The notes below the pieces were generated by a model. The model saw nothing but the letters and a program-made list of their open reading frames with translations. It was not told where the DNA came from and did not search any database. Below, piece by piece: positions 23,457 through 36,955 of a DNA stretch of 64,000 nt (within the stretch, counting starts at the first letter, position 1; each line of letters begins with the position of its first letter). Source of the stretch: Terriglobia bacterium (GTDB lineage Bacteria; Acidobacteriota; Terriglobia; 20CM-2-55-15); contig CAXWPJ010000009.1 of NCBI GenBank assembly GCA_963664115.2, positions 512,001 to 576,000 on the forward strand. Direction: 5' to 3'. A program made the position numbers and the translations under genes.

Positions 23457-23573
23457 GGGAATTCCGCTCCACGTAACAGCCAGAATCCGCTGGCTTTGCC
23501 TAACGGGACCAAATTCCACCGTCCCGTTAGGCAGAAAATGTCCCGTTAGGCAGAAATTCAGGGGTAAGTTTTT

Positions 23574-23831
23574 TCACTTGCCAGCGCCGGTGGCGTCGCC
23601 GTCGATGGTGTTAAGAACGCCGATGAACGCAGATTCGGTAAGACCGGCTTCTTTCAAGGCGTAATTGATAATTTCGAAACTGGCGTAGTCGCCAATCTTC
23701 GGGAGGATGATCGTGGAATGTCCCCGCACCATAGCCCAGTTCATCTCGCTTTCGCGGTCAACTGTATATCCAATCTGATCTAATACTGCCTTGAGACGTT
23801 CCGGGGATTGCGGCGCGAGGGGCGTAGGCAA
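23574..23831 (-). CDS. HicA-fold toxin-like protein
   Basis: LKAVLDQIGYTVDRE...IILP...IINYALKEAGLTESAF pattern; immediately downstream of a hicB-like gene. Confidence 0.65.
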   Translation of the reverse strand: MPTPLAPQSPERLKAVLDQIGYTVDRESEMNWAMVRGHSTIILPKIGDYASFEIINYALKEAGLTESAFIGVLNTIDGDATGAGK

Positions 23832-23835
23832 TGAG

Positions 23836-24171
23836 CTATGCCGCCATTGTCATCGGCACATCGAATTCATATACCTGATATTGCTCGTCGACACCGACGA
23901 ATTCGCCCTCATCTGGAGCGTTGCTTGCGCCGCTGAATCCAAGGGCTTGTAGGGTGTCCTCAAAGAGTCCCCGGTCATACAGCGAACCAATATAAAGTTG
24001 GATCGCATCGACCAGTGATTCCTTCGCTTGATCTGCCGTCATCCCCTGGGAATAGATTCCCAATCTTGGGCAATACGAGACGAACACCTTTGCATCTTCG
24101 TCTTTGCGAATTCCGCCTTTCAAACTAAAACTAATCATCGCTGCACTCCTGCACCCCTCAGGTGCAAACAT
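23836..24171 (-). CDS. HicB-family antitoxin
   Basis: FVSYCPRLGIYSQGMTADQAKESLVDAIQLY. Confidence 0.8.
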   Translation of the reverse strand: MFAPEGCRSAAMISFSLKGGIRKDEDAKVFVSYCPRLGIYSQGMTADQAKESLVDAIQLYIGSLYDRGLFEDTLQALGFSGASNAPDEGEFVGVDEQYQVYEFDVPMTMAA

Positions 24172-24388
24172 ATTAGAGACTGGAAACCTTCAATTATATC
24201 CGACAAACACGAAAGCGCCAGACTCAAACACAAAGAAAGGCCAAACCTGCCATTCGGGAGGTTCAACTCCTTATTTATGTTAAATACGAGTCTTCGTCAA
24301 CCAAAATAAGTGAAATTTGTACGTTATACGGAAATGAGTTCTGAGAGCGTCTAGACATGATCTGTCAAACCTTTCTCCATCACCGGCG

Positions 24389-25639
24389 TTAACCAAATTC
24401 CCCATTGGGCAGAAAAGTTGGGTCGATCCCAAGCTCGAACATCTCGTGAATCAGGACAACAAGGTTGTGACATAGGATCTTGCACAGGGCCTCGTTGACC
24501 ATGGCCGTTTCTGACTTGGACCGAAGGCTGTCACCGAACTTCGCCTTTATCATGTGGAACGTAGTTTCGACATTGGATCGCTTGTGGTAGTGACTCAGGA
24601 ACTCATCCCGCCGGTACTGAAAGTAGTGATACATGCTCCGCCATGCCGCCGTTTTCGGCCAACCGTGCCGCTCCTCAGCACGCGGGAAGCTAATCGCACT
24701 GTTCTTCTTAAGGGCGATAAAGGGAGCGGCCCCCGCCTTCATCACTTGATAGACATTGTTGTAGGACAAATATCCTTTGTCGGCACTGACTTCCTCAACA
24801 TCAAACCCGCTGGTTGTTGTATCCAGAAGGCTCGGAAGCATGATTGAGTCGTGTGTGTTTCCGATCTCGACGGCGGTGACTATGTTTGTCTTCACGCCGC
24901 ACATGAGATGCGTCTTGATCCACTGGTGACGAAACCGCTCCTGTCCCCACTTGTGATCGAACCACCGCTCGAACTTCGATGTAGAGAAGCCCGAAGAATC
25001 CACTGCAAAGTCCGTTTCCACCGATGCCAGAGGAAGGGCTGAGGTTTCAATCAGCCGCTCTATGATGGGCCTCAGTTCCGGCTTTTCGAGGTAGTTGAAA
25101 ATGCTGTTGTAGTGTGGGACCTTCGAGATAAAGCCGTTTGCGTGAGACTGCCGAAGATCCGACATAAAGCGACGGCCCGATACGGTGCTGTAGACCTTGA
25201 ACGTCGCGGAAAAGATCGCGTCAGAGAGCGGGATACGGCGCTGTCCCTTGCCCGTCTGTGGGGGAGTCGGAACCAATTCACACAGGTTTCGAAGCAGCAC
25301 TTGGAACTGATCCTTCTCGTTTGTCTGAGCAGCGTTGTAGGACGGCCAGTCCTGCCGGTAAGTGGGCCGCTTGGTTGCGGTAACCGACTCAGGGATGGTT
25401 TTCGGCCCGTCCGGATTGTCCTGCCGTGCCCGGTAGATTTCGACTGCCAGCACGTGTTTGCACGGTTGCCGCCGTTCTTCGTAATCCAGGCACGTGCAAT
25501 GAGAGCTCTTCCCAAGGATCGTGACCGAGTATTTACCCGTCCCATACTGAGACGGAACCGACCATCGGCACTTATCCAGATTCGAGATACGAAACTTGTC
25601 GGCTATTTCGATAGCGTGTTGTTGTCTTACAGAGGTCAT
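24389..25639 (-). CDS. Transposase with N-terminal SWIM zinc finger and IS5-type DDE domain (intact)
   Basis: CTCLDY...PCKH; AVDSSGF, ADKGY, YHKRSNVETTFHMIK, CHNL. Confidence 0.9.
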   Translation of the reverse strand: MTSVRQQHAIEIADKFRISNLDKCRWSVPSQYGTGKYSVTILGKSSHCTCLDYEERRQPCKHVLAVEIYRARQDNPDGPKTIPESVTATKRPTYRQDWPSYNAAQTNEKDQFQVLLRNLCELVPTPPQTGKGQRRIPLSDAIFSATFKVYSTVSGRRFMSDLRQSHANGFISKVPHYNSIFNYLEKPELRPIIERLIETSALPLASVETDFAVDSSGFSTSKFERWFDHKWGQERFRHQWIKTHLMCGVKTNIVTAVEIGNTHDSIMLPSLLDTTTSGFDVEEVSADKGYLSYNNVYQVMKAGAAPFIALKKNSAISFPRAEERHGWPKTAAWRSMYHYFQYRRDEFLSHYHKRSNVETTFHMIKAKFGDSLRSKSETAMVNEALCKILCHNLVVLIHEMFELGIDPTFLPNGEFG

Positions 25640-25853
25640 TTAGCACTCAGCCTTTCTACGGGCCGTGCTAGAATTGACGTGGTTACCAAACCCGTCTTTC
25701 TGGCTTCGGCCTGAAGGATGCGCCCCGCTGACAGTTTGCGCTGCCAGTGGGGCTTTTTCTGTTTAACCATTACAATAAATCATTCTATGTTGACAATAAT
25801 ATTCTAGATCGTTACAATAAGTCAACCCAAATGGCTAAATACGGATAAAATTA

Positions 25854-26945
25854 ATGGCTCGAATGACTAAAAAGGAAAGGGAAGAGCTACGCGCTTTTAT
25901 CATTCAGAATGTCCGCGCCAACCCTGCGGATATTACGAACAAGATCACTGAGGCGTTCCCTATTTCACGGCAAACAGGGCACCGGCATCTCAATTACCTA
26001 GTGGAGGAAGGCATCCTTTCGGCCGTCGGACAAACCAAGGCCCGAAAATATGAACTCGTGTTGCTTGAATCATTTAGTGTTACCGCGGAGGTTACCGATG
26101 AACTTGAGGAGCATGTGGTGTTGCGAGACGCCGAGAAAACTCTGCTGGGAGTGCCGGAGAACGTGCGCAATATCTGTCGGCACGGTTTTACCGAAATGCT
26201 CAATAACGTGATTTCGCATTCTGGGTCTCAGGAGGCACGTATTGTCGTAGTAAGAACGGGGGCGGACATAACTATCTCAATCAAGGACACGGGAATCGGC
26301 ATTTTTCGCAAGATCCAGCAAGACTTTGATTTGCCAGATCCGCGCCAAGCACTCCTTGAACTCACCAAGGGAAAGCTCACTTCCGATTCCACAAAGCACA
26401 CTGGCGAAGGCATATTCTTCACGTCTCGAATGTTTGACGAGTTCATGATCGCTTCGGGCGAGCTTGATTTTTGTCGCTTCAACAAGCAAGACGACTGGTT
26501 CTTTCAGGTCGAGGAACGGAAAGAAATCTCCGGAACTTTAGTCTGGATGAGGATTGCCCTGACCGCGTCCCAAACAGACAAAGAAGTGTTCTTGCAATTC
26601 GCTCCCGAGGAAGCTGACTTCGGGTTTACAAGGACGCATGTTCCCATCAATTTAGCCGTCTATGAAGGCGAGAAACTAATATCGCGGTCTCAAGCTCGGC
26701 GTCTACTTGCACGTGTCGATAGATTCGCCGAAGTCATGTTGGATTTTCGAGGAGTCGCCAGCATTGGACAGCCGTTTGCTGACGAGACTTTCAGGGTATT
26801 CCAGAAGCAACATCCTGGAACACGACTCGTCCATATCAATGCCTCGGAAGATGTTGAGAATATGATCTCCCACGTGAAAGCAACGGAGGCGTTTGACGAA
26901 CTCCAAGCCACTCTCTTCGATGACACGTTGCATCCAGACGAATAG
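25854..26945 (+). CDS. HTH + HATPase + STAS-like (DUF4325) protein
   Basis: ISRQTGHRHL..LVEEG HTH; EMLNNVISHS, DTGIGI, GEGIFF; SRSQARR, LDFRGV..IGQPFADE.FRVF. Confidence 0.85.
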   Translation: MARMTKKEREELRAFIIQNVRANPADITNKITEAFPISRQTGHRHLNYLVEEGILSAVGQTKARKYELVLLESFSVTAEVTDELEEHVVLRDAEKTLLGVPENVRNICRHGFTEMLNNVISHSGSQEARIVVVRTGADITISIKDTGIGIFRKIQQDFDLPDPRQALLELTKGKLTSDSTKHTGEGIFFTSRMFDEFMIASGELDFCRFNKQDDWFFQVEERKEISGTLVWMRIALTASQTDKEVFLQFAPEEADFGFTRTHVPINLAVYEGEKLISRSQARRLLARVDRFAEVMLDFRGVASIGQPFADETFRVFQKQHPGTRLVHINASEDVENMISHVKATEAFDELQATLFDDTLHPDE

Positions 26946-26982
26946 GTGGCTTATTGAATTCCCGCAATGATCGCAAAAATGG

Positions 26983-27344
26983 GGTAGTGTCCTAATTTGA
27001 ATTCTCACCTTTGAAAGACAAGCCGACTTGCCGGCTCAGCTTAGGAAGGGAGGCTGGATATGGAAAATGTGACGGCTATTTTGACGCCAGAGGTAGTGGT
27101 AGCGGTTGTGTATATACTAACTCTCTTGGCAGCTTGGTGTTGGGCGGTCTATTTCCTAAAGGACAAGACTGACGCGCTCTCTGAAAGGTCATTGAATGTA
27201 GTCATCGCGTCCATGATCGGAGTTATAACCGCAGTTCTGGCGTTTGTGGGTGTGGTCGAAGGCGCGGCGATAATTGCTCTTCTATCGGCAATCGCTGGGT
27301 ATATTCTGGGTGCTTCAACCCGGAATCGAAATTAGGACACTACC
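26983..27344. mobile_element. Non-autonomous 362-bp MITE-like element with IS1-type ends and one passenger gene
   Basis: 16-bp perfect IR GGTAGTGTCCTAATTT; 8-bp DR AAAAATGG at 26975-26982 and 27345-27352. Confidence 0.9.
27060..27335 (+). CDS. Small 3-TM membrane protein
   Basis: GGAGG RBS; three hydrophobic helices ending LLSAIAGYILG; stop codon lies inside the right IR. Confidence 0.75.
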   Translation: MENVTAILTPEVVVAVVYILTLLAAWCWAVYFLKDKTDALSERSLNVVIASMIGVITAVLAFVGVVEGAAIIALLSAIAGYILGASTRNRN

Positions 27345-27380
27345 AAAAATGGCGATGCCAACGGTCGCAATGATCGGAAG

Positions 27381-27449
27381 AATCCCCCAGCGATGGAAGC
27401 GGGACTCACTGATCACGTTTGGACGCTGAACGAATTGATCGAGAGCTAA
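27381..27449 (+). pseudogene. C-terminal remnant of an IS1-related transposase
   Basis: Translates NPPAMEAGLTDHVWTLNELIES*, the TPAMxAGLTDHVW tail of that group. Confidence 0.7.
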
Positions 27450-27565
27450 AAAGCCCAACAGGTAGCGTTCGGCCCAATTCTAGCCACAATTAGTAGCACC
27501 GAACAAACATCGGGTATAATGCAAAAGGTCCCCCTGCCAGGGGACCTTTGAAAATCCGTCGAGGT

Positions 27566-27611
27566 CGGGAGATGGTAATTAGACTCTGACGGGAGATGGT
27601 AATTAGACTCT
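27566..27611. repeat. 22-bp direct repeat x2 (CGGGAGATGGTAATTAGACTCT), 24-bp period
   Basis: Exact copies at 27566-27587 and 27590-27611. Confidence 0.9.
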
Positions 27612-27721
27612 CCCATCATAGCGCCGTATGCGTGATCCCGTCAATCTCTTCTCTACCCGAAGTTCGCCCGGATCGCGCTGTGGTCTTAGTGCGGATGGGC
27701 TTTAATTAGGAAGACAGGAAA

Positions 27722-27994
27722 ATGAAACCTTATGAAGTTACTTACGATCTAAGAAAACCCGGACAGAACTATGATGGTCTGATTGAACGGCTACAGCAAT
27801 TGAAGGCTGTTCGAGTGGAGCAATCCACATGGCTAATGAGAAGCACTTCGCTTGCGCTTGATATAGCCAACGACCTGATGAGGTTTATGGACAAGAACGA
27901 CAGGCTTCTTGTCGCCGAGATCGTGCCGTCCAACACGGCATGGTACAACCTGCTGGTTACTAGTGATCAGATCAATCAGAAGCTCGCTTCCTGA
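27722..27994 (+). CDS. Small Cas2/VapD-like ferredoxin-fold protein (often labelled SinR family)
   Basis: YEVTYDL..PGQNY..L, QSTWL, MDKNDRLLV. Confidence 0.65.
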   Translation: MKPYEVTYDLRKPGQNYDGLIERLQQLKAVRVEQSTWLMRSTSLALDIANDLMRFMDKNDRLLVAEIVPSNTAWYNLLVTSDQINQKLAS

Positions 27995-28005
27995 TTCGAT
28001 CCGAA

Positions 28006-28036
28006 GGCCAGCGGGGGCTTCGGTCTTCGCTGGCCT
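28006..28036 (+). terminator. Hairpin after the Cas2-like gene
   Basis: AGGCCAGCGGGGGC-TTCG-GTCTTCGCTGGCCT stem-loop; no clear U tract. Confidence 0.55.
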
Positions 28037-28068
28037 GAAATCTTCGATGTTGTAAACATTCATTGAGT

Positions 28069-28100
28069 GTCTTATATCACAAGGGTCTTATATCACAAGG
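28069..28100. repeat. 16-bp tandem repeat x2 (GTCTTATATCACAAGG)
   Basis: Exact copies at 28069-28084 and 28085-28100. Confidence 0.85.
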
Positions 28101-28141
28101 GCCAATCTAGCGGACCATCACCGAGATTTCCCCCGATCTAG

Positions 28142-29985
28142 GCCCAAAACAAGCGCATAACCAGTCCGCCGAGGCCCAGTTCGCGCCGATAGAATTCGAG
28201 GCATAGAATCCCGTTCCCGGATGGCCTGTTCCAGGTATCGAGTTTCTGTTGAATCTGTTTCAGTTCAGCCTCGCTGGTGTTGGACGGTTGACAGAAACCG
28301 GGACCTCGATCGCCCGGGCTCAGAGTCATGATCGGGTCAACATCGCAGAGGCTGACGCAACACATCCACCCCGCGGAACAAGACCGGCAACCACCGGTTC
28401 CAGGCCAGGATCCGGAACAGAATGCGCCGCCCGGTGCGCACGAGTTGGCACGGCACAAGCATGAAAGCGTTCAAGAAGGTTTTGAACTCCATGCGCAGCA
28501 CGGTTTGCTTCTCAGCCTGATATTTTTGGCCCCAACGTCCGGTTTCGGGAAGCAGCAATGCAAACCACGCTTTCAGTGTCCAGGCCAGTGACGCGATCAC
28601 CATGTAGGCCCAGTTGCTGGTCTGATCTCCGACCGGCATCCGCAACGCCTGAACGCCGTTCTTCAACTGCTCAATGAGATTCTCCTGATTGCACCGTTGA
28701 TTGGCACGCATCACAATCTGGTCGGCCGGATCCGAACGGTTGGTAATGTAGAAGAAGTACCGGATGTCGTCAAACAACACCTGCTCTCCTTTGGCCACCG
28801 ACAGATTCTTCCGCACCACGACGACACGGTAGTCCCGATCGCAGGCTCCGGGTCGATACCGAAACTCGGCCACATCCTCACCCTGCAAGCGGATATTGTC
28901 GAAACCGCGCTGCCGAACGATCTCTTCCTTCACGTTGTCGGGACGTTGGCGCGGTTCGGTCGCCACGTCGTATTTCGCGGGCCGTTCCAGGCGCTTCCAC
29001 TGGCGCGGCTCCAGTTCATCGGCCCGGGCCTTCAGGTTCGCCATCGCGTCAATCCCGAATATGAAACCCACCTGCTGGTCGTCCCATCCGTCCAGATGCC
29101 GGGTCTGGCTGAAGTCCGTGTCCCCGCGCAGCAGGATCTGGCGAAACCCCGCATGCCGGCACAATGCGATGGCTTGGTCGAACCGGACCGCGGCTCCTTC
29201 ATGCGACGGCCGGTTGCCGCTACGATTGACCAGATACAGCGGTTCGGCGGTGTTGGCCAGCGAGATCATCAGCGGGTGATATCCCCACGTCCCGTCGTAG
29301 GCCACGTCCATCCCTTGCTTGCATTCCCCCGTGGTTTCGGCCAGTGTCCCGTCCGCGTCCAACACCGCTTCTTCGAAAAACGCCGCCGGTTGCTGTCGCC
29401 AGACTCCGAGCCGGACTTGATTGGTTGCCTCCATCAGACACTCCACGTCGTCGGCCTCGAATCTCCGGCAGAAGTCTCCCGCCGTCGTCGGATCCGGAAT
29501 CCGTTGCGCTCCCAGCGCATCCAGATACACCGCATCGTTGCGCCGCAGTTCGATGTCTTCCAGGCACGTTCCTCCGCTCAAGGCGTTGTAGGCGATGTTC
29601 AGCACGTGATCCGACTCGTGATACGGCAGGTGCCGCTTCAACACATGCACGCCCTTGTCGATGGCTTCGATCAGCCCGGTCCGCCGCGCCACCAGTTGCA
29701 TCGTCCCGATACCACCAACCGATGTGCCCCGCGTCCGCTCTCCCATCTCGTACTGAATGTTGCTCGCCGAAAACATCGGCTCTACCTGATCCGTCCAATG
29801 CCGGTCCCCAAGCCGACGTTCGATTCGCCGCTTGCGGTTCCTCATGTTCTTGCGCGTATAATCGTTCATCTGAAATGCCTCCTTTTCCGAAGAATCTGTT
29901 CAAGGTTTTTTTCGCACGGAGAGGGGGCATTTCGGGTACTTCCGCTCTTATTGCACTATCATTTCCTCGTCAATCACGCCAGGGT
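28142..29985 (-). mobile_element. IS1380-family element, copy 2, nested in transposon A
   Basis: CTAG on both flanks; near-identical to copy 1; right IR lacks 5 bp (TTGTT). Confidence 0.92.
28337..29869 (-). CDS. IS1380-family DDE transposase
   Basis: Same 510-aa translation as 8514-10046. Confidence 0.92.
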   Translation of the reverse strand: MNDYTRKNMRNRKRRIERRLGDRHWTDQVEPMFSASNIQYEMGERTRGTSVGGIGTMQLVARRTGLIEAIDKGVHVLKRHLPYHESDHVLNIAYNALSGGTCLEDIELRRNDAVYLDALGAQRIPDPTTAGDFCRRFEADDVECLMEATNQVRLGVWRQQPAAFFEEAVLDADGTLAETTGECKQGMDVAYDGTWGYHPLMISLANTAEPLYLVNRSGNRPSHEGAAVRFDQAIALCRHAGFRQILLRGDTDFSQTRHLDGWDDQQVGFIFGIDAMANLKARADELEPRQWKRLERPAKYDVATEPRQRPDNVKEEIVRQRGFDNIRLQGEDVAEFRYRPGACDRDYRVVVVRKNLSVAKGEQVLFDDIRYFFYITNRSDPADQIVMRANQRCNQENLIEQLKNGVQALRMPVGDQTSNWAYMVIASLAWTLKAWFALLLPETGRWGQKYQAEKQTVLRMEFKTFLNAFMLVPCQLVRTGRRILFRILAWNRWLPVLFRGVDVLRQPLRC

Positions 29986-30085
29986 CTAGGTTGACTCTTC
30001 CGTTGGGCAGATCGTTGTTTTGTTGGGCAAATTGCTCCCGTTAGGCAAAGCCGAATCCGCTGGCTTTGCCCGAAAAGTAAATAAG

Positions 30086-31303
30086 TCAGGCTTTTATTCG
30101 GGCAGCCGGGGTTTCTGCCCAGAAAATCGGCTCGACCCCTAGTTCGTGAGCTTCATGAATCAGGACTACAAGATTGTGACAAAGAATCTTGCACAGTGCT
30201 TCGTTGACCAGTGCGCGGTCGGTCTTCGACCGAAGCGAGTCTCCGAACTTCGCCTTAATCATGTGGAACGTGGTTTCGACGTTCGAGCGCTTGTGATAGT
30301 GCTCCAGAAACTCGTCGCGCTTCAACTGGAAGTAGTAGTACATGTCGTTCCAGACCTTGCTGCCGTTCCTGGCTGGCTGTTGGTCTTGAGCGCATGAATT
30401 GGCTCCAGCATTAGTCACCTTCTGCACGTTGTTCGCACTCAGGTAAGCTTGTCAGCGGAAACCTCACGCATCGTGAAGTTCTTGACGTAGATTCCAGCAT
30501 GTCGGGCAGCAACGGTGCATCGTGGGCCTCGCGGCCTCGGATCTCGACGGCTGTAACGATGTTGGTTTTGACGCCGCACATGATGTGGACCTTCACCCAG
30601 ATTCGCTTGAACCGATCGGCCGTGCTTGTGATCGAACCACCTCTCGAATCGGCAGGTGGAGAAGCCGGATGTCCACGGCGAAATCGCGCTCAACCGATTT
30701 CAGAGGAAGGCTCGACTCCGTAATCAGGTTCTCGAGAATCTGAGTCAACCCTGGGTTGTCCATCAAGCCGAAGATCGAGTTGTAGTGGGGAAGTTGGTTC
30801 AGAAACCCCGAAGCTTTGGCATTCCGAAGATCGCTCATGAACCGGCGACCGGAAACGGTCGAGTACCTTGAACGTTGCCGCAAATACCGAATCGGAAATC
30901 GGCAGCGCCGGTCGCCCGCGGCCTGTCCGCTTCGGCTGCTTCAATCCCTGACACAGGCCCCAGAGAAGCATCTGAAACTCGTCCTTCTCGTTGGTTTGCG
31001 CCGCGTTGTAGGCCGTCCAGTCCTGCTTGTAGGTTGGTCTCTTGGTAGCGTAGATGGCCTCTGTGACCTTTGGTCTGTGAGTCGGGCTTTCCTGTTGCAC
31101 TCTGAAGAACTCGACCGCCATGACATGCTTGCACGGCTGTCGGCGCTTCTCCCAGGCAGGTGCAGTGGGAGTTTTGGCCGAGGATCGTGACCGAATAGCG
31201 TCCAGTACCGTACTGCGAAGGAACCAGCCAGCGGCATGCGCCTGGGACTGATACGGAACTTATCCGCGATTTCGAGTGCGCGTTGTTTTCTGGGATTGTC
31301 CAC
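30086..31303 (-). pseudogene. SWIM+DDE transposase paralogue with multiple frameshifts
   Basis: Fragments WLVPSQYGTGRYSVTILG..SHCTCL, YNAAQTNEKDEF, VSGRRFMSDLR, FERWFDHK, HIMCGVKTNIVTAVE, YHKRSNVETTFHMIKAKFGD match 24389-25639. Confidence 0.9.
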
Positions 31304-31439
31304 GGTAGGTCTCCATACTTGATTCGCAAGGGCCGTGGACCTAAAATTGAGGTTGCTGGCCTGTACGGGTGTCACGAGCACCTTGCAGGTTTGTGGTCGC
31401 GCCGGATGCGCCAACATCCGGCGCGGCTATCTACAGGTT

Positions 31440-31527
31440 TGGCGGCGGGTGTGGGAATCGAACCCACGAGCCCCGAGGGACTACCCGGTTGTAAGCCGGG
31501 TCCGATAGACCTCTCTGGCAACCCGCC
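31440..31527 (-). tRNA. Class II (long variable arm) tRNA with anticodon TAC (Val) and a Ser-type body
   Basis: GGCGGGT-TG-CCAGAGAGGTCTATCGG-A-CCCGG-CTTACAA-CCGGG-TAGTCCCTCGGGGCTC-GTGGG-TTCGATT-CCCAC-ACCCGCC-G-CCA. Confidence 0.9.
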
Positions 31528-31546
31528 GTTAAACTCATTTCACTTC

Positions 31547-31951
31547 TCAGAACGGAAAGTCGTCGTCAGTGGCTTCCTTCACTATCCACTGGTAAAGAGT
31601 CTTGCCGGCTCTTTCGACTGGTTTGACCTCTCCCTGATCTTCCAGCCGTTTCAGCGTGGTGTGGATGACTGCAAGGGCGTTCTTGTATTTGTTGAGCGGA
31701 AACTCGCTGCTCTGCAGATGCCAAACGGTTGTGCTTGCAAGTAGGCTCTCTTTGAGCACCTCACGGATAGCATCAGTGATTGTCTCTTCTTCAAGGTCTT
31801 CACCTATGAGGCGCTCAGGCTGAGAACCGTCTTTCGCAAATCGCTTCGCTCCTGGTTTCTACAAGCCGAGCTGAGACTCTTCGTTCAGGAGTTCGTCGAG
31901 TTCAGATCTTGCGCCATCAAGTGTCTCTTCGTAATTGCGGTTGGCAGTCAT
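31547..31951 (-). CDS. Coiled-coil + winged-helix-like protein, apparently frameshifted
   Basis: MTANRNYEETLDGARSELDELL...ITDAIREVLKE...NALAVIHTTLKRLEDQGEV...GKTLYQW. Confidence 0.55.
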
Positions 31952-31970
31952 TATTTACATGGAATTTTAT

Positions 31971-32189
31971 ATGTCTGATACGAAAAAGTCAATGGAGGTT
32001 TTACATGGAGAATTACTTTTAAATCGTAATGTGTGTAAATGGAAGCAAGCCATTGAAGATGCAGAATTTATTGTTTTGGAACACCAAAGGAAAATTCGCG
32101 CATTAAGGCGGGCAATCCGTGTTTTTCGGGAAAATGCCGAAGAAGGAACTCCGTTGAGCGACCCGTTGGGCAGAAGCGCTAATCGTTAG
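31971..32189 (+). CDS. Small hypothetical coiled-coil protein at the right end of transposon B
   Basis: WKQAIEDAE...QRKIRALRRAIRVFRENAEEGTP; stop lies within the end repeats. Confidence 0.45.
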   Translation: MSDTKKSMEVLHGELLLNRNVCKWKQAIEDAEFIVLEHQRKIRALRRAIRVFRENAEEGTPLSDPLGRSANR

Positions 32190-32673
32190 GCAAATGGTTC
32201 CCGTTGGGCAAAGCCGAATCCGCTATGACGGACAACTTCTATGGATTTCGGTATTTCCTGCACCGCCGAGTCGGATAAACCACACATTTGATTGATAAAC
32301 TGATTTGGTATGGGATGTGCTCATTAAGGGCTGGGATGGCGACGAACCCGTTTGGCTGGTTAGCCAGGGAAGGCGTTCCGACACTCGGAGTCAGCATTTG
32401 AAGACGGGATGAGATGGGATGAAGATGATTGGAGGAGAGGGTGAGTGGGATGGTGGAGGCCTGATCAACTTATTCTCTCCCTTGTAGTTTATTAGCTAGA
32501 CCTGCCTTTTAGACCGGAATCTCAGTCCGGTCGGTTTCAGCAGATTCTTTAACAAACGCTTGCTGGCCTGCAATATAGTGTGTCGGTGGACGGCGCGCGA
32601 ATTCCGCAAGCGAAAGTCGCCCCGGCTTCCGTGGGGCATGTCCGCATGCAGCCAGTCAAACCCAGTTGAACGC

Positions 32674-35804: not shown

Positions 35805-36955
35805 GTGGTCCCCGTTAAACAGACTGTAACTTATCAAGATTTCGCCGGCCGCGCTGGACTTTAGCAAGGATGTCGGAAGCCGTTGCAGTCCAGATGAAGG
35901 GTTTCGGGTCTTCATTGTGACGAGCGAGGTAGTCCTCCACGGCCTGGATCAACTCGGGGACCGAGCGGAAAACGCCACGCCGGAGTCGTTGCTCGGACAG
36001 ATCCCGGAAAAAGCGCTCGACCATGTTGAGCCACGACGCACTGGTTGGCGTGAAGTGCACATGAAAACGCTTGTTACGCTTGAGCCAGTTGACGACTTTC
36101 TGATGTTTGTGAGTCGCATAGTTGTCGCAAATAATGTGGATCTCCTTATCTTTCGGCATGGCGCGTTTGATCTGATTCAGAAACCGGATCCATTCCTGAT
36201 GGCGATGCTTTGGCATGCAGGTTCCGATGACCGAACCGTCCAGGATGTTGAGCGCGGCGAAAAGCGTGGTTGTCCCGTTACGTTTGTAATCGTGGGTCAT
36301 GGTGCCACACCGCCCCTTCTTCAGAGGTAACCCGGGTTGCGTGCGGTCCAGGGCCTGCATCTGGCTCTTCTCATCGCAGGACAAGACAATGGCGTTTTCC
36401 GGTGGGCTCAGATACAGACCGACCACATCCTCCAGCTTTTCGGCGAATCGTTTGTCGTTGGATAGTTTGAAGGTTCGTGACAGATGAGGCTTCAGTCCAT
36501 GGACCCGCCAGATTTTCCCGACCGTGGACTCGCTCACGCCAACGGCCTTCGCCATCGAGGCCCGACTCCAGTGCGTCGCGTTCGGGGGCTTCTCTTCCAG
36601 TGTCTTCTTGACGATCCGGGCTCGCTTCCGGCGACTGATCGTGGGAATCCGTCCGCTTCGCGGCGCATCCTTTTCGATCCCAGCCAAGCCCTGTTCCACA
36701 AAACGATTGCGCCAGCGGCCCGCTTTCTGGCGCGTGATCTCCAAGCGGGCGGCGATCTCATAATTGTTCCGACCTTCAGCGGCCAGTAATACAATTCGGG
36801 ATCGTTCCGCCAACCGGACCGATGTACTCCGGCTTCGACTCAGTCGCTCCAACTCCATCCGCTGCTTGTCATCCAATTCAATGGTCGGTGCTTTCCTCAT
36901 TCTCTATTGGACGTTGGAAAGCTATTTTAGTTACATTACTTCGAGCGGGGTACAC
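35805..36955 (-). mobile_element. IS630-family element
   Basis: TA duplication within CTAG; IRs GTGGTCCCCG / GTGTACCCCG(rc). Confidence 0.9.
35815..36900 (-). CDS. IS630-family transposase
   Basis: SCDEKSQ, HDYKRNGT, ICDNYATHK, SASWLNMVERFF. Confidence 0.95.
   Translation of the reverse strand: MRKAPTIELDDKQRMELERLSRSRSTSVRLAERSRIVLLAAEGRNNYEIAARLEITRQKAGRWRNRFVEQGLAGIEKDAPRSGRIPTISRRKRARIVKKTLEEKPPNATHWSRASMAKAVGVSESTVGKIWRVHGLKPHLSRTFKLSNDKRFAEKLEDVVGLYLSPPENAIVLSCDEKSQMQALDRTQPGLPLKKGRCGTMTHDYKRNGTTTLFAALNILDGSVIGTCMPKHRHQEWIRFLNQIKRAMPKDKEIHIICDNYATHKHQKVVNWLKRNKRFHVHFTPTSASWLNMVERFFRDLSEQRLRRGVFRSVPELIQAVEDYLARHNEDPKPFIWTATASDILAKVQRGRRNLDKLQSV

Follow-up and report, generated by a model that had tools for sequence, protein, structure and literature searches.

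Two gene-carrying transposons, here called elements A and B, lie end to end in a 64,000-nucleotide stretch of a Terriglobia bacterium genome (assembly G000, 4.89 Mb in 12 contigs; contig C9, positions 512001-576000, hereafter the window), and the same 9-bp sequence, GAATCCGCT, occurs on both sides of the pair and between its members. The three exact copies in the window, at 23483, 30053 and 32216, bracket A (6561 bp) and B (2154 bp) as a first-pass annotation had described. The repeat count by itself is weak evidence, as at least three copies of GAATCCGCT also arose in 7 of 100 shuffles; each copy in the window adjoins a GGCTTTGCC end, with exact ends at 23492 (+), 30044 (-), 30062 (+) and 32207 (-). 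In window coordinates, the locus is built as follows.

23483-23491, plus strand: target duplication copy 1 (GAATCCGCT); a single copy lies at the corresponding place in four congeners
23492-30052, minus strand: element A, an IS903-like SWIM-DDE cargo transposon and the older resident; 6561 bp in the assembly
30053-30061, plus strand: target duplication copy 2, the spacer at the A/B junction; contigs of runs X2 and X3 run across it into B
30062-32215, minus strand: element B, a younger, polymorphic cargo transposon; 2154 bp in the assembly
32216-32224, plus strand: target duplication copy 3, an exact copy of GAATCCGCT
32225-32321, plus strand: host block and candidate landmark, conserved in congeners; the duplication marks its start and a sigma54-like motif its end

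The transposase genes of A and B are both on the minus strand, and the elements share 66-77% DNA identity where alignable and differ in cargo, in agreement with the earlier description of two elements in one orientation with related, non-identical transposases. The ends of A match each other at 22 of 24 bases and those of B at 12 of 17, and the previously reported match of 16 of 17 bases between the inverted repeats at A's left and B's right end was also recovered. A and B carry the only family transposases in the assembly. Our short-read evidence, which comprises 8 of 23 listed runs in the form of Logan contigs, points to errors in both elements as assembled. Contigs of B are 73 letters longer than B in the window, which puts the element at ~2227 bp there. 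Given that the extra letters shown coincide with gaps seen against homologues, the frameshifts of B are probably assembly errors in an intact element of ~2227 bp. Two tandem duplications in A, of 21 bp (27566) and 16 bp (28069), were absent in all four runs compared and are likely assembly errors as well.

Three states of this site were found. In four of four congeners (G001, G002, G003 and G004) no element occupies the site, which has one similar 9-mer; its right flank is conserved there and the bases immediately to its left are not. An allele with A alone, in which A's end passes straight into the right flank (joint 30043 to 32207), is present in runs X6, X7 and X12 from three studies. Both the empty and the single-element allele had been predicted from the window. 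Runs X1, X2 and X3, from two studies, hold B at lower depth than A (11.1 vs 19.9; 4.5 vs 15.3), contig depth being a rough guide only and X1 and X2 possibly representing the source sample. Contigs of X2 and X3 start at 30032 within A's end and run through the spacer and the whole of B; their 30 letters on the A side are one below our 31-letter bridging rule. Since the A-only allele is present in contigs from three studies, B was the second to arrive: A came first, and B followed, flush at A's edge. Both elements also use other 9-mers, given that in X2 A's right end continues additionally into the flank assembled at C10:458550 and B's right end into another flank, and that an 87% copy of B in congener G003 lies unstacked at an unrelated site, with a different tRNA. 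At C10:458550 of G000 itself (L101:6551), a second copy of A's right end lies beside an IS1380 and is followed by a different 9-mer; no matching left end was found in the assembly.

Judged by their sequences, A and B are members of a widespread IS903-like cargo family with a SWIM-DDE transposase and multi-site GGCTTTG ends. A genome scan, in which confirmation of the best 80 of 120 loci left 79 loci, found family hosts mostly in Acidobacteriota and also in Alphaproteobacteria, Chloroflexota, Eremiobacterota and DPANN archaea. The existence of an IS5-type family of gene-carrying transposons, as first proposed, is supported. Elements with duplications span ~1.8-11 kb, their target duplication usually measures 9 bp, with 10 bp in 7 and 8 bp in 1 of 53 rows, and all family ends share GGCTTTGC and TGCCYAA arrays. 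Transposase A reached 105 bits on the IS5 model NF033579, under the cut-off of 140, and the top named relatives of the transposase among plasmid matches were IS5/IS903B at 24-27% identity (27% between transposase A and IS903B). Apart from the transposase and the frames overlapping it, no gene was common to the family in a comparison of 75 elements, the largest cargo cluster being present in 14, and a shared accessory target-selector gene was not found in 75 elements. The open full-text literature, without most subscription papers and ISfinder/TnCentral, yielded no account of a SWIM-DDE IS903-like cargo family, of its stacking or of its tRNA module.

Stacking is a family habit. Stacks make up 9 of the 79 transposase loci, eight with a 9-bp end-to-end junction and the ninth with a junction filled by repeated duplication scars. 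Across 151 genomes of the family to which genome G031 belongs, the spacer was 9 bp in 33 of 71 end-to-end junctions, while the other 20 spacer lengths shared 38 junctions (~2 each); seven of these are at 17 bp, three of them visibly a duplication plus a scar. These junction tallies, and those for dif given below, include genomes G052, G067, G145, G163 and G178, which are flagged as unpublished; nothing else stated here depends on these genomes. Among the 9-bp junction regions examined, L286 had no element ends, so not every 9-bp match is an element junction. Stacking occurs in both orientations. Arrays of 7-9 bp scars of the target duplication, up to ~5 units long, are present at L001:6746-6784, L064:5902-5934, L067, L073, L096 and L202, which suggests repeated insertion and excision at one position. 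The idea that elements accumulate one after another at a single site is supported. The ends would allow the full 8.7 kb to move as a unit, also considered in the first-pass annotation, but among the loci compared no array combined a new duplication on the outside with a changed spacer inside; no case of a stack moving as one unit was seen, the outer flanks of L291 being unmatched. A junction scan of viral contigs gave 62 stretches, none with the family transposase nearby, and these were attributed to chance or hairpins.

What had been proposed in addition, re-use of an exact target sequence, did not survive. The 57 family sites include 56 with distinct 9-mers, the best of which agrees with GAATCCGCT at 5 of 9 bases; GAATCCGCT occurs 81 times in the genome with one site occupied; and one element in genome G199 lies at three different sites. 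We therefore rejected an exact 9-mer or consensus target. The first-pass annotation had set its model against random targets without stacking in other copies; targets in other copies are indeed unrelated, and tandem stacking is nevertheless common. On either side of the duplication there is a weak C/G bias. What is re-used is the position and not the sequence, as stacking at 9-bp junctions is habitual in the family despite differing 9-mers, and the same repeat recurs because each insertion re-duplicates whatever nine bases sit at the fixed position.

Relatives land at fixed offsets beside two kinds of landmark, dif and one sigma54-type promoter. A dif-like site, defined as two arms with a variable center and judged by likeness to the sequence in PMC10132070, is present in 107 of the 151 genomes, mostly once. 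A family end lies 7-8 bp past it in 3 of 30 sampled dif loci (16 bp in one case, with a scar), and a family end lies beside a dif-like site in 7 of the 79 loci, all in one transposase clade of a quick tree; in G031, at least five elements are at the dif-like site. Arrays at the promoter of the same subtilase gene are present in seven genomes, each with its own 9-mer, and in six of the seven a sigma54-like motif lies at a distance of 223-229 bp; a second sigma54-like promoter has two further arrays or elements. Landmark arrays are also polarized: of the ten with at least two transposases, the proximal one was full-length in ten and the distal one broken in five, with no reversed case.

No dif-like motif lies beside the present locus. 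The conserved host block here ends in a sigma54-like -24/-12 motif at 32306-32321, 90 bp from B's end, and the motif lies 81 bp from the block start in three congeners and similarly in a fourth; B inserted on the promoter side of A. The sigma54 -24/-12 consensus is GG-N10-GC, and the strict sigma54-like motif has 45 matches in the genome. The flank motif has weak matches only elsewhere in the genome.

Different family elements were also seen at the same or similar regulatory sites (L008, L009, L013, L017; L018, L020, L022, L024; L053, L062; L021, L025, L028, L037). We take these groups of sites to be TTGACA inside the duplication, a palindrome lying upstream of an lpxC-like gene, a -35 box at a distance of 17-18 bp, and an NrdR-box-like motif. 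Family sites as a whole showed no enrichment in sigma54 or -35 motifs.

The reading that we favor, with a probability of roughly 0.5, is that B inserted flush at A's end through docking of its transposase at a fixed position beside a protein-bound landmark, here the conserved sigma54-type promoter block. A would have landed first, and B would then have entered flush with A's end, duplicating the same nine bases again, while the landmark block would survive each insertion. The cut would fall at the landmark's upstream edge and the newcomer would slot between landmark and resident, so that the newest element would be nearest the landmark. We infer cut-and-paste chemistry with a 9-bp stagger; excision, which the scar arrays in relatives appear to fit, would leave the 7-9 bp scar repeats. 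Docking would proceed through a DNA-bound protein or a bend, with the N-terminal SWIM finger as the candidate contact. Lasting stacks would consist of different elements, as tandems of identical elements would collapse by recombination.

Several observations weigh against landmark docking. Only ~35 bp separate the upstream gene from the conserved block, and a position of A near the edge could thus be due to selection alone. Within 300 bp, a sigma54-like motif was present at 2 of 31 single-site full elements, one of which is the present window, and at 1 of 20 sites of MITEs (miniature inverted-repeat transposable elements). A and B have ends at other sites too, B's closest copy is unstacked, and that copy, in G003, lies among short repeats that we take to be DnaA-box-like. 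Finally, the ~22 MITE sites examined in G031 include seven tandems, each at its own unrelated 9-mer and without a flank motif common to them, which fits end-targeting better, and under end-targeting the side on which B entered is a coin toss.

End-directed insertion, in which an incoming transpososome pairs with a resident family end, or is recruited by transposase bound there, and integrates outside that end at the distance of one duplication, wherever the first element came to lie, is accordingly a real possibility, although we consider it less probable than landmark docking at the present locus, and it may act together with docking. Besides the G031 tandems, it draws on the GGCTTTGC and TGCCYAA arrays common to all family ends and on the makeup of MITE pairs: five of six tested G031 pairs joined different MITE types, each near copies elsewhere (mostly 97-99%) and unlike its neighbor, and all five junctions in genome G010 were between different MITEs. 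These unrelated pairs argue that resident ends also attract insertions. On the other hand, genomes G113, G153, G185 and G062 have 39-64 end-like matches each and no 9-bp junction, the five G010 junctions stand against 318 ends and lie partly in hairpin repeats, and recruitment to ends leaves unexplained both the first insertions at dif and the subtilase promoter and the polarity of those arrays. Landmark docking and end-targeting may be one habit of landing beside a bound protein.

The remaining explanations fare worse. A loose insertion preference, with selection keeping intergenic cases in a few tolerated spots and coincidences accumulating by chance, would suit the short intergenic gap, the many unrelated single sites and the weak C/G bias; we consider it improbable in view of the base-exact recurrence of 9 bp in 33 of 71 junctions and of scar arrays, which imply that one position went through repeated cycles. 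Collapse of A-only and B-only alleles into a false tandem during assembly was suggested by the polymorphism, lower depth and error-rich sequence of B and by the lack of a contig across the whole locus, yet contigs of X2 and X3, from two studies, connect A's end with the spacer and B, no joint between the left flank and B was listed, and such tandems are common in the family, which makes this quite unlikely. Recognition of GAATCCGCT or a short consensus by the transposase, the first-pass model, can point to the three identical copies here and to a few orthologous sites with similar 9-mers (L002/L006, L018/L022), and is very improbable in light of the distinct 9-mers, the 81 genomic copies with one used, the A and B ends at other 9-mers and the three G199 sites. 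Least probable of all is that one element was copied locally between its target duplications and the copies then diverged, which would explain the shared orientation and related transposases but not perfect 9-mers beside 66-77% DNA identity and different cargo, the 87% match of B to a copy in another species, or the A-only allele.

Side observations on the family concern its cargo and its non-autonomous copies. Restriction-modification-like cargo is present in L004, L007, L010, L036, L041 and L053, that of L004 being an N6 methylase with an HsdR N-terminus. L061, L065, L069, L072 and L051, mostly of the dif-associated clade, have a second, convergent transposase-like gene without the SWIM region. 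In G010 (L335, L363-L369), a family MITE of 108 bp is present in ~160 copies, whose duplications measure 10-11 bp; several copies lie in hairpin repeats, and no transposase was found with the family query.

Element A contains the following features.

23492-23555, plus strand: end of A downstream of the transposase, with GGCTTTGCC and inverted TGCCYAA-type subterminal sites at +36 and +55
23574-23831, minus strand: open reading frame (ORF) of 85 aa, a possible HicA-like partner (weak; E 0.001 to a Pfam HicA protein of the same genome)
23836-24171, minus strand: HicB-like or antitoxin-like ORF of 111 aa (PHD_like E 1.5e-4, below cut-off)
24389-25639, minus strand: transposase A, intact, 416 aa, with an N-terminal SWIM zinc finger and DDE_Tnp_1 (PF01609, E 5.6e-20)
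25854-26945, plus strand: cargo gene for a 363-aa protein with helix-turn-helix, HATPase_c and DUF4325 (STAS-like) domains (phrog_3364)
27060-27335, plus strand: cargo gene for a 91-aa hydrophobic small membrane protein without family (ORF list, Pfam search)
27722-27994, plus strand: cargo gene for a 90-aa protein of phrog_1090, function not known (E 1e-22)
28143-29984, minus strand: IS1380-family insertion sequence (IS) within A, transposase at 28337-29869 (NF033539, 285.9 bits)
30003-30052, minus strand: end of A upstream of the transposase, with three direct TGCCYAA sites at +6, +24 and +44

The subterminal layout of the end at 23492-23555 is the same across the family. The predicted structure of the transposase was poor (predicted local distance difference test, pLDDT, 58.6). 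The 85-aa ORF gave no match in a Pfam search, and the 111-aa ORF is 32% identical over 65 aa to a gene adjoining a Pfam HicA gene. A lone subterminal-site motif lies at 24399-24416, at the 3' end of transposase A; the corresponding place in B is that element's end, and the motif may mark an older A end predating capture of the HicAB-like cargo. PADLOC gave no convincing match on element cargo. A GC-rich hairpin lies immediately upstream of both transposase genes (25722-25753 and 31397-31428) and of those of several relatives. The first-pass annotation had treated A as one cargo transposon; its bounds hold, but ~1.85 kb within it is the later IS1380-family insertion, bordered by the 6-bp duplication TCTAGG at 28137-28142 and 29985-29990. 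This IS has 81 BLAST matches in the genome, and its near-identical copies insert at CTAG-centered 6-mers. In one copy, at C4:40122-42866, the transposase is followed downstream by ~900 bp of A's cargo, perhaps through ISEcp1-like capture or through a rearrangement; a matching duplication on the outside was not seen there. An intact IS630-family transposase lies at 35815-36900 of the window, 3.6 kb to the right of B.

Element B is laid out as follows.

30086-31303, minus strand: transposase B, frameshifted in the assembly and probably intact (homologue alignment, short-read contigs)
31440-31527, minus strand: 7/5 tRNA gene with anticodon UAC (Val), a long variable arm, G73, encoded CCA and a serine-type body
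31547-31951, minus strand: coiled-coil and winged-helix gene, directly upstream of the tRNA and broken in the assembly
31935-32189, plus strand: small divergent helical ORF, common to six family elements
32166-32215, minus strand: end of B upstream of the transposase, with three direct TGCCYAA sites

The order coiled-coil/winged-helix gene, tRNA, transposase is present in 14 of 75 elements, B included. A structural model of a homologue of B's winged-helix protein (pLDDT 87.8) has a long helix followed by a winged helix and resembles Fur/BlaI-type winged helix-turn-helix structures, with no match at E≤0.001; searches assigned the protein to no named family, HARE-HTH being a lead at 0.87. A profile of the winged-helix protein hit 17 loci in 13 of 301 genomes of the phylum, eight of them beside a family transposase.

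The tRNA gene of B was absent from the feature list of the first-pass annotation. It has one A12-C23 mismatch in the D stem, no differences were listed between the X2 contig and the window, and with the anticodon masked its best host match was Ser (78) ahead of Leu (77). An ordinary host tRNA-Val(UAC) is present elsewhere in the genome, and GTA accounts for ~10% of host Val codons. In a survey of 108 regions upstream of family transposases, which contained 20 distinct tRNA genes, none of the 20 best matched the isotype of its own anticodon when this was masked, compared with 31 of 38 in a leave-one-out control; eight of the 20 are serine-type, with G73 and a long arm. The long variable arm, like G73, is a serine identity element (PMC5389517; PMC7609411, in the portions available), and, in the text available of Mukai et al., two allo-tRNAs inserted serine and killed E. 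coli (PMC5389517). Our best reading, held tentatively, is that the winged-helix protein and the serine-bodied UAC tRNA form a self-repressed module that would insert serine at GUA Val codons when derepressed and would serve addiction or abortive defense. The near-ties in isotype calls for 4 of the 20 tRNAs, B's among them, weigh against this assignment. Contigs of RNA runs X17 and X19 do not cover B; these samples may lack B, so they have no bearing on its expression. Element-specific recoding, by which the tRNA's codons would fall at columns conserved for the body amino acid, was absent in 11 of 13 transposases tested and partial in the other two, L016 and L029, so that an element-specific code is not supported; one transposase was absent from the set and B was outside the test.

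In its long arm and G73 with a non-serine anticodon, B's tRNA resembles the allo-tRNAs and irregular polycistronic tRNAs of Acidobacteria, as far as those are described in the available portions of PMC5389517 and PMC7609411. The accessible part of PMC5389517 lists further irregular tRNAs of Acidobacteria, with G-1 His-type bodies and Thr anticodons, Leu-type UUA tRNAs and toxin-antitoxin genes nearby; by eye, the tRNAs that the family carries in L022 and L296 look similar to the G-1 His-type and UUA Leu-type classes of its supplement, to the extent that it was available. B's tRNA differs in being a canonical 7/5 cloverleaf, not the 8/4 or 9/3 type of those allo-tRNAs, and the same portion of PMC5389517 mentions a transposon-related ORF once and describes no carrier family or winged-helix partner. 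Two further loci on C9 of G000 carry irregular tRNAs. At L103:4104-4178 (C9:320103), a short-armed tRNA with a GCU (Ser) anticodon and an Arg-like body sits between a toxin-antitoxin-like pair and an interrupted transposase start, which from sequence likeness we take to be an IS1-like start broken by an IS256-like element. At L104:4781-4945 (C9:454781-454944), two irregular tRNAs lie in tandem just 3' of a selD-like gene; the second has a long arm, G73 and the anticodon UAG (Leu), and a HicB/HicA pair is 2 kb away.

A broader picture, which we regard as doubtful, would have a one-gene IS5-type transposase dock via its SWIM finger on DNA-bound complexes (the sigma54 enhancer, Xer at dif, its own ends), building polarized, self-renewing defense islands without Tn7-style helpers, while one large branch would disseminate mistranslating tRNAs, kept under repressor control, as RNA toxins. 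The locus illustrates how a single small transposase can build a genomic island, with cargo accumulating at a harmless spot because the landing position is regenerated by each insertion. The family would also be a carrier for the irregular tRNAs of Acidobacteria, with B as a compact regulator and tRNA module. This locus contributes a series of alleles at one site, grounds from these same two elements for discarding a sequence target, and, in bacteria, a candidate landmark in the form of a sigma54 promoter. The three stages of one site (empty, A-only, A and B) offer a natural test bed for landmark docking versus end-targeting, and targeted integration would profit from a transposase whose insertions can be directed to dif or to the edges of promoters.

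Among known systems, IS903/IS903B (IS5 family, IS903 group) have ends that begin with GGCTTTG and are the nearest named transposases, at 25-27% identity. IS903 generates a 9-bp target duplication; no duplication was seen at the IS903B copy compared here (L331). IS903B is 1,057 bp long with a single 18-bp repeat per end and no cargo, whereas the present family has an added N-terminal SWIM finger, subterminal site arrays, cargo (~1.8-11 kb), MITEs and stacks, and does not pass the curated IS5 model NF033579 (105 vs 140). IS911 and IS30 insert in a targeted manner next to resident ends and form end-spacer-end junctions with a duplication-length spacer; they are copy-out/paste-in IS3 and IS30 elements that form dimers of the same IS, in contrast to the different, cargo-bearing IS5-type neighbors of our stacks. 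Tn7 builds tandem islands at attTn7 in which the landmark survives insertion, giving polarized accretion, and it uses TnsABC and TnsD; no TnsC or TnsD (TniQ) genes are among the ORFs of A and B. As described in the parts available of PMC10132070 and bioRxiv 10.1101/2022.12.17.520857, the ISAba32/ISAjo2 group of the IS1202 family inserts at a fixed offset beside dif/xrs whatever the local sequence, with successive tandem insertions parted by the same duplication and a proposed contact with XerC/XerD. Our family resembles these elements in having one transposase, a fixed offset at dif in one clade and tandem stacks. The IS1202 family, according to the same partial sources, has a TnsB/Mu-like transposase, TGT...ACA ends and a 5-bp duplication, and inserts on the XerC side in one orientation; our family has an IS5-type enzyme, duplications of 9-10 bp, insertion on the TTATGT arm side of dif in both orientations and landmarks beyond dif. 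The closest named element is therefore IS903B, while the closest behavior is that of IS1202/ISAba32 elements and Tn7.

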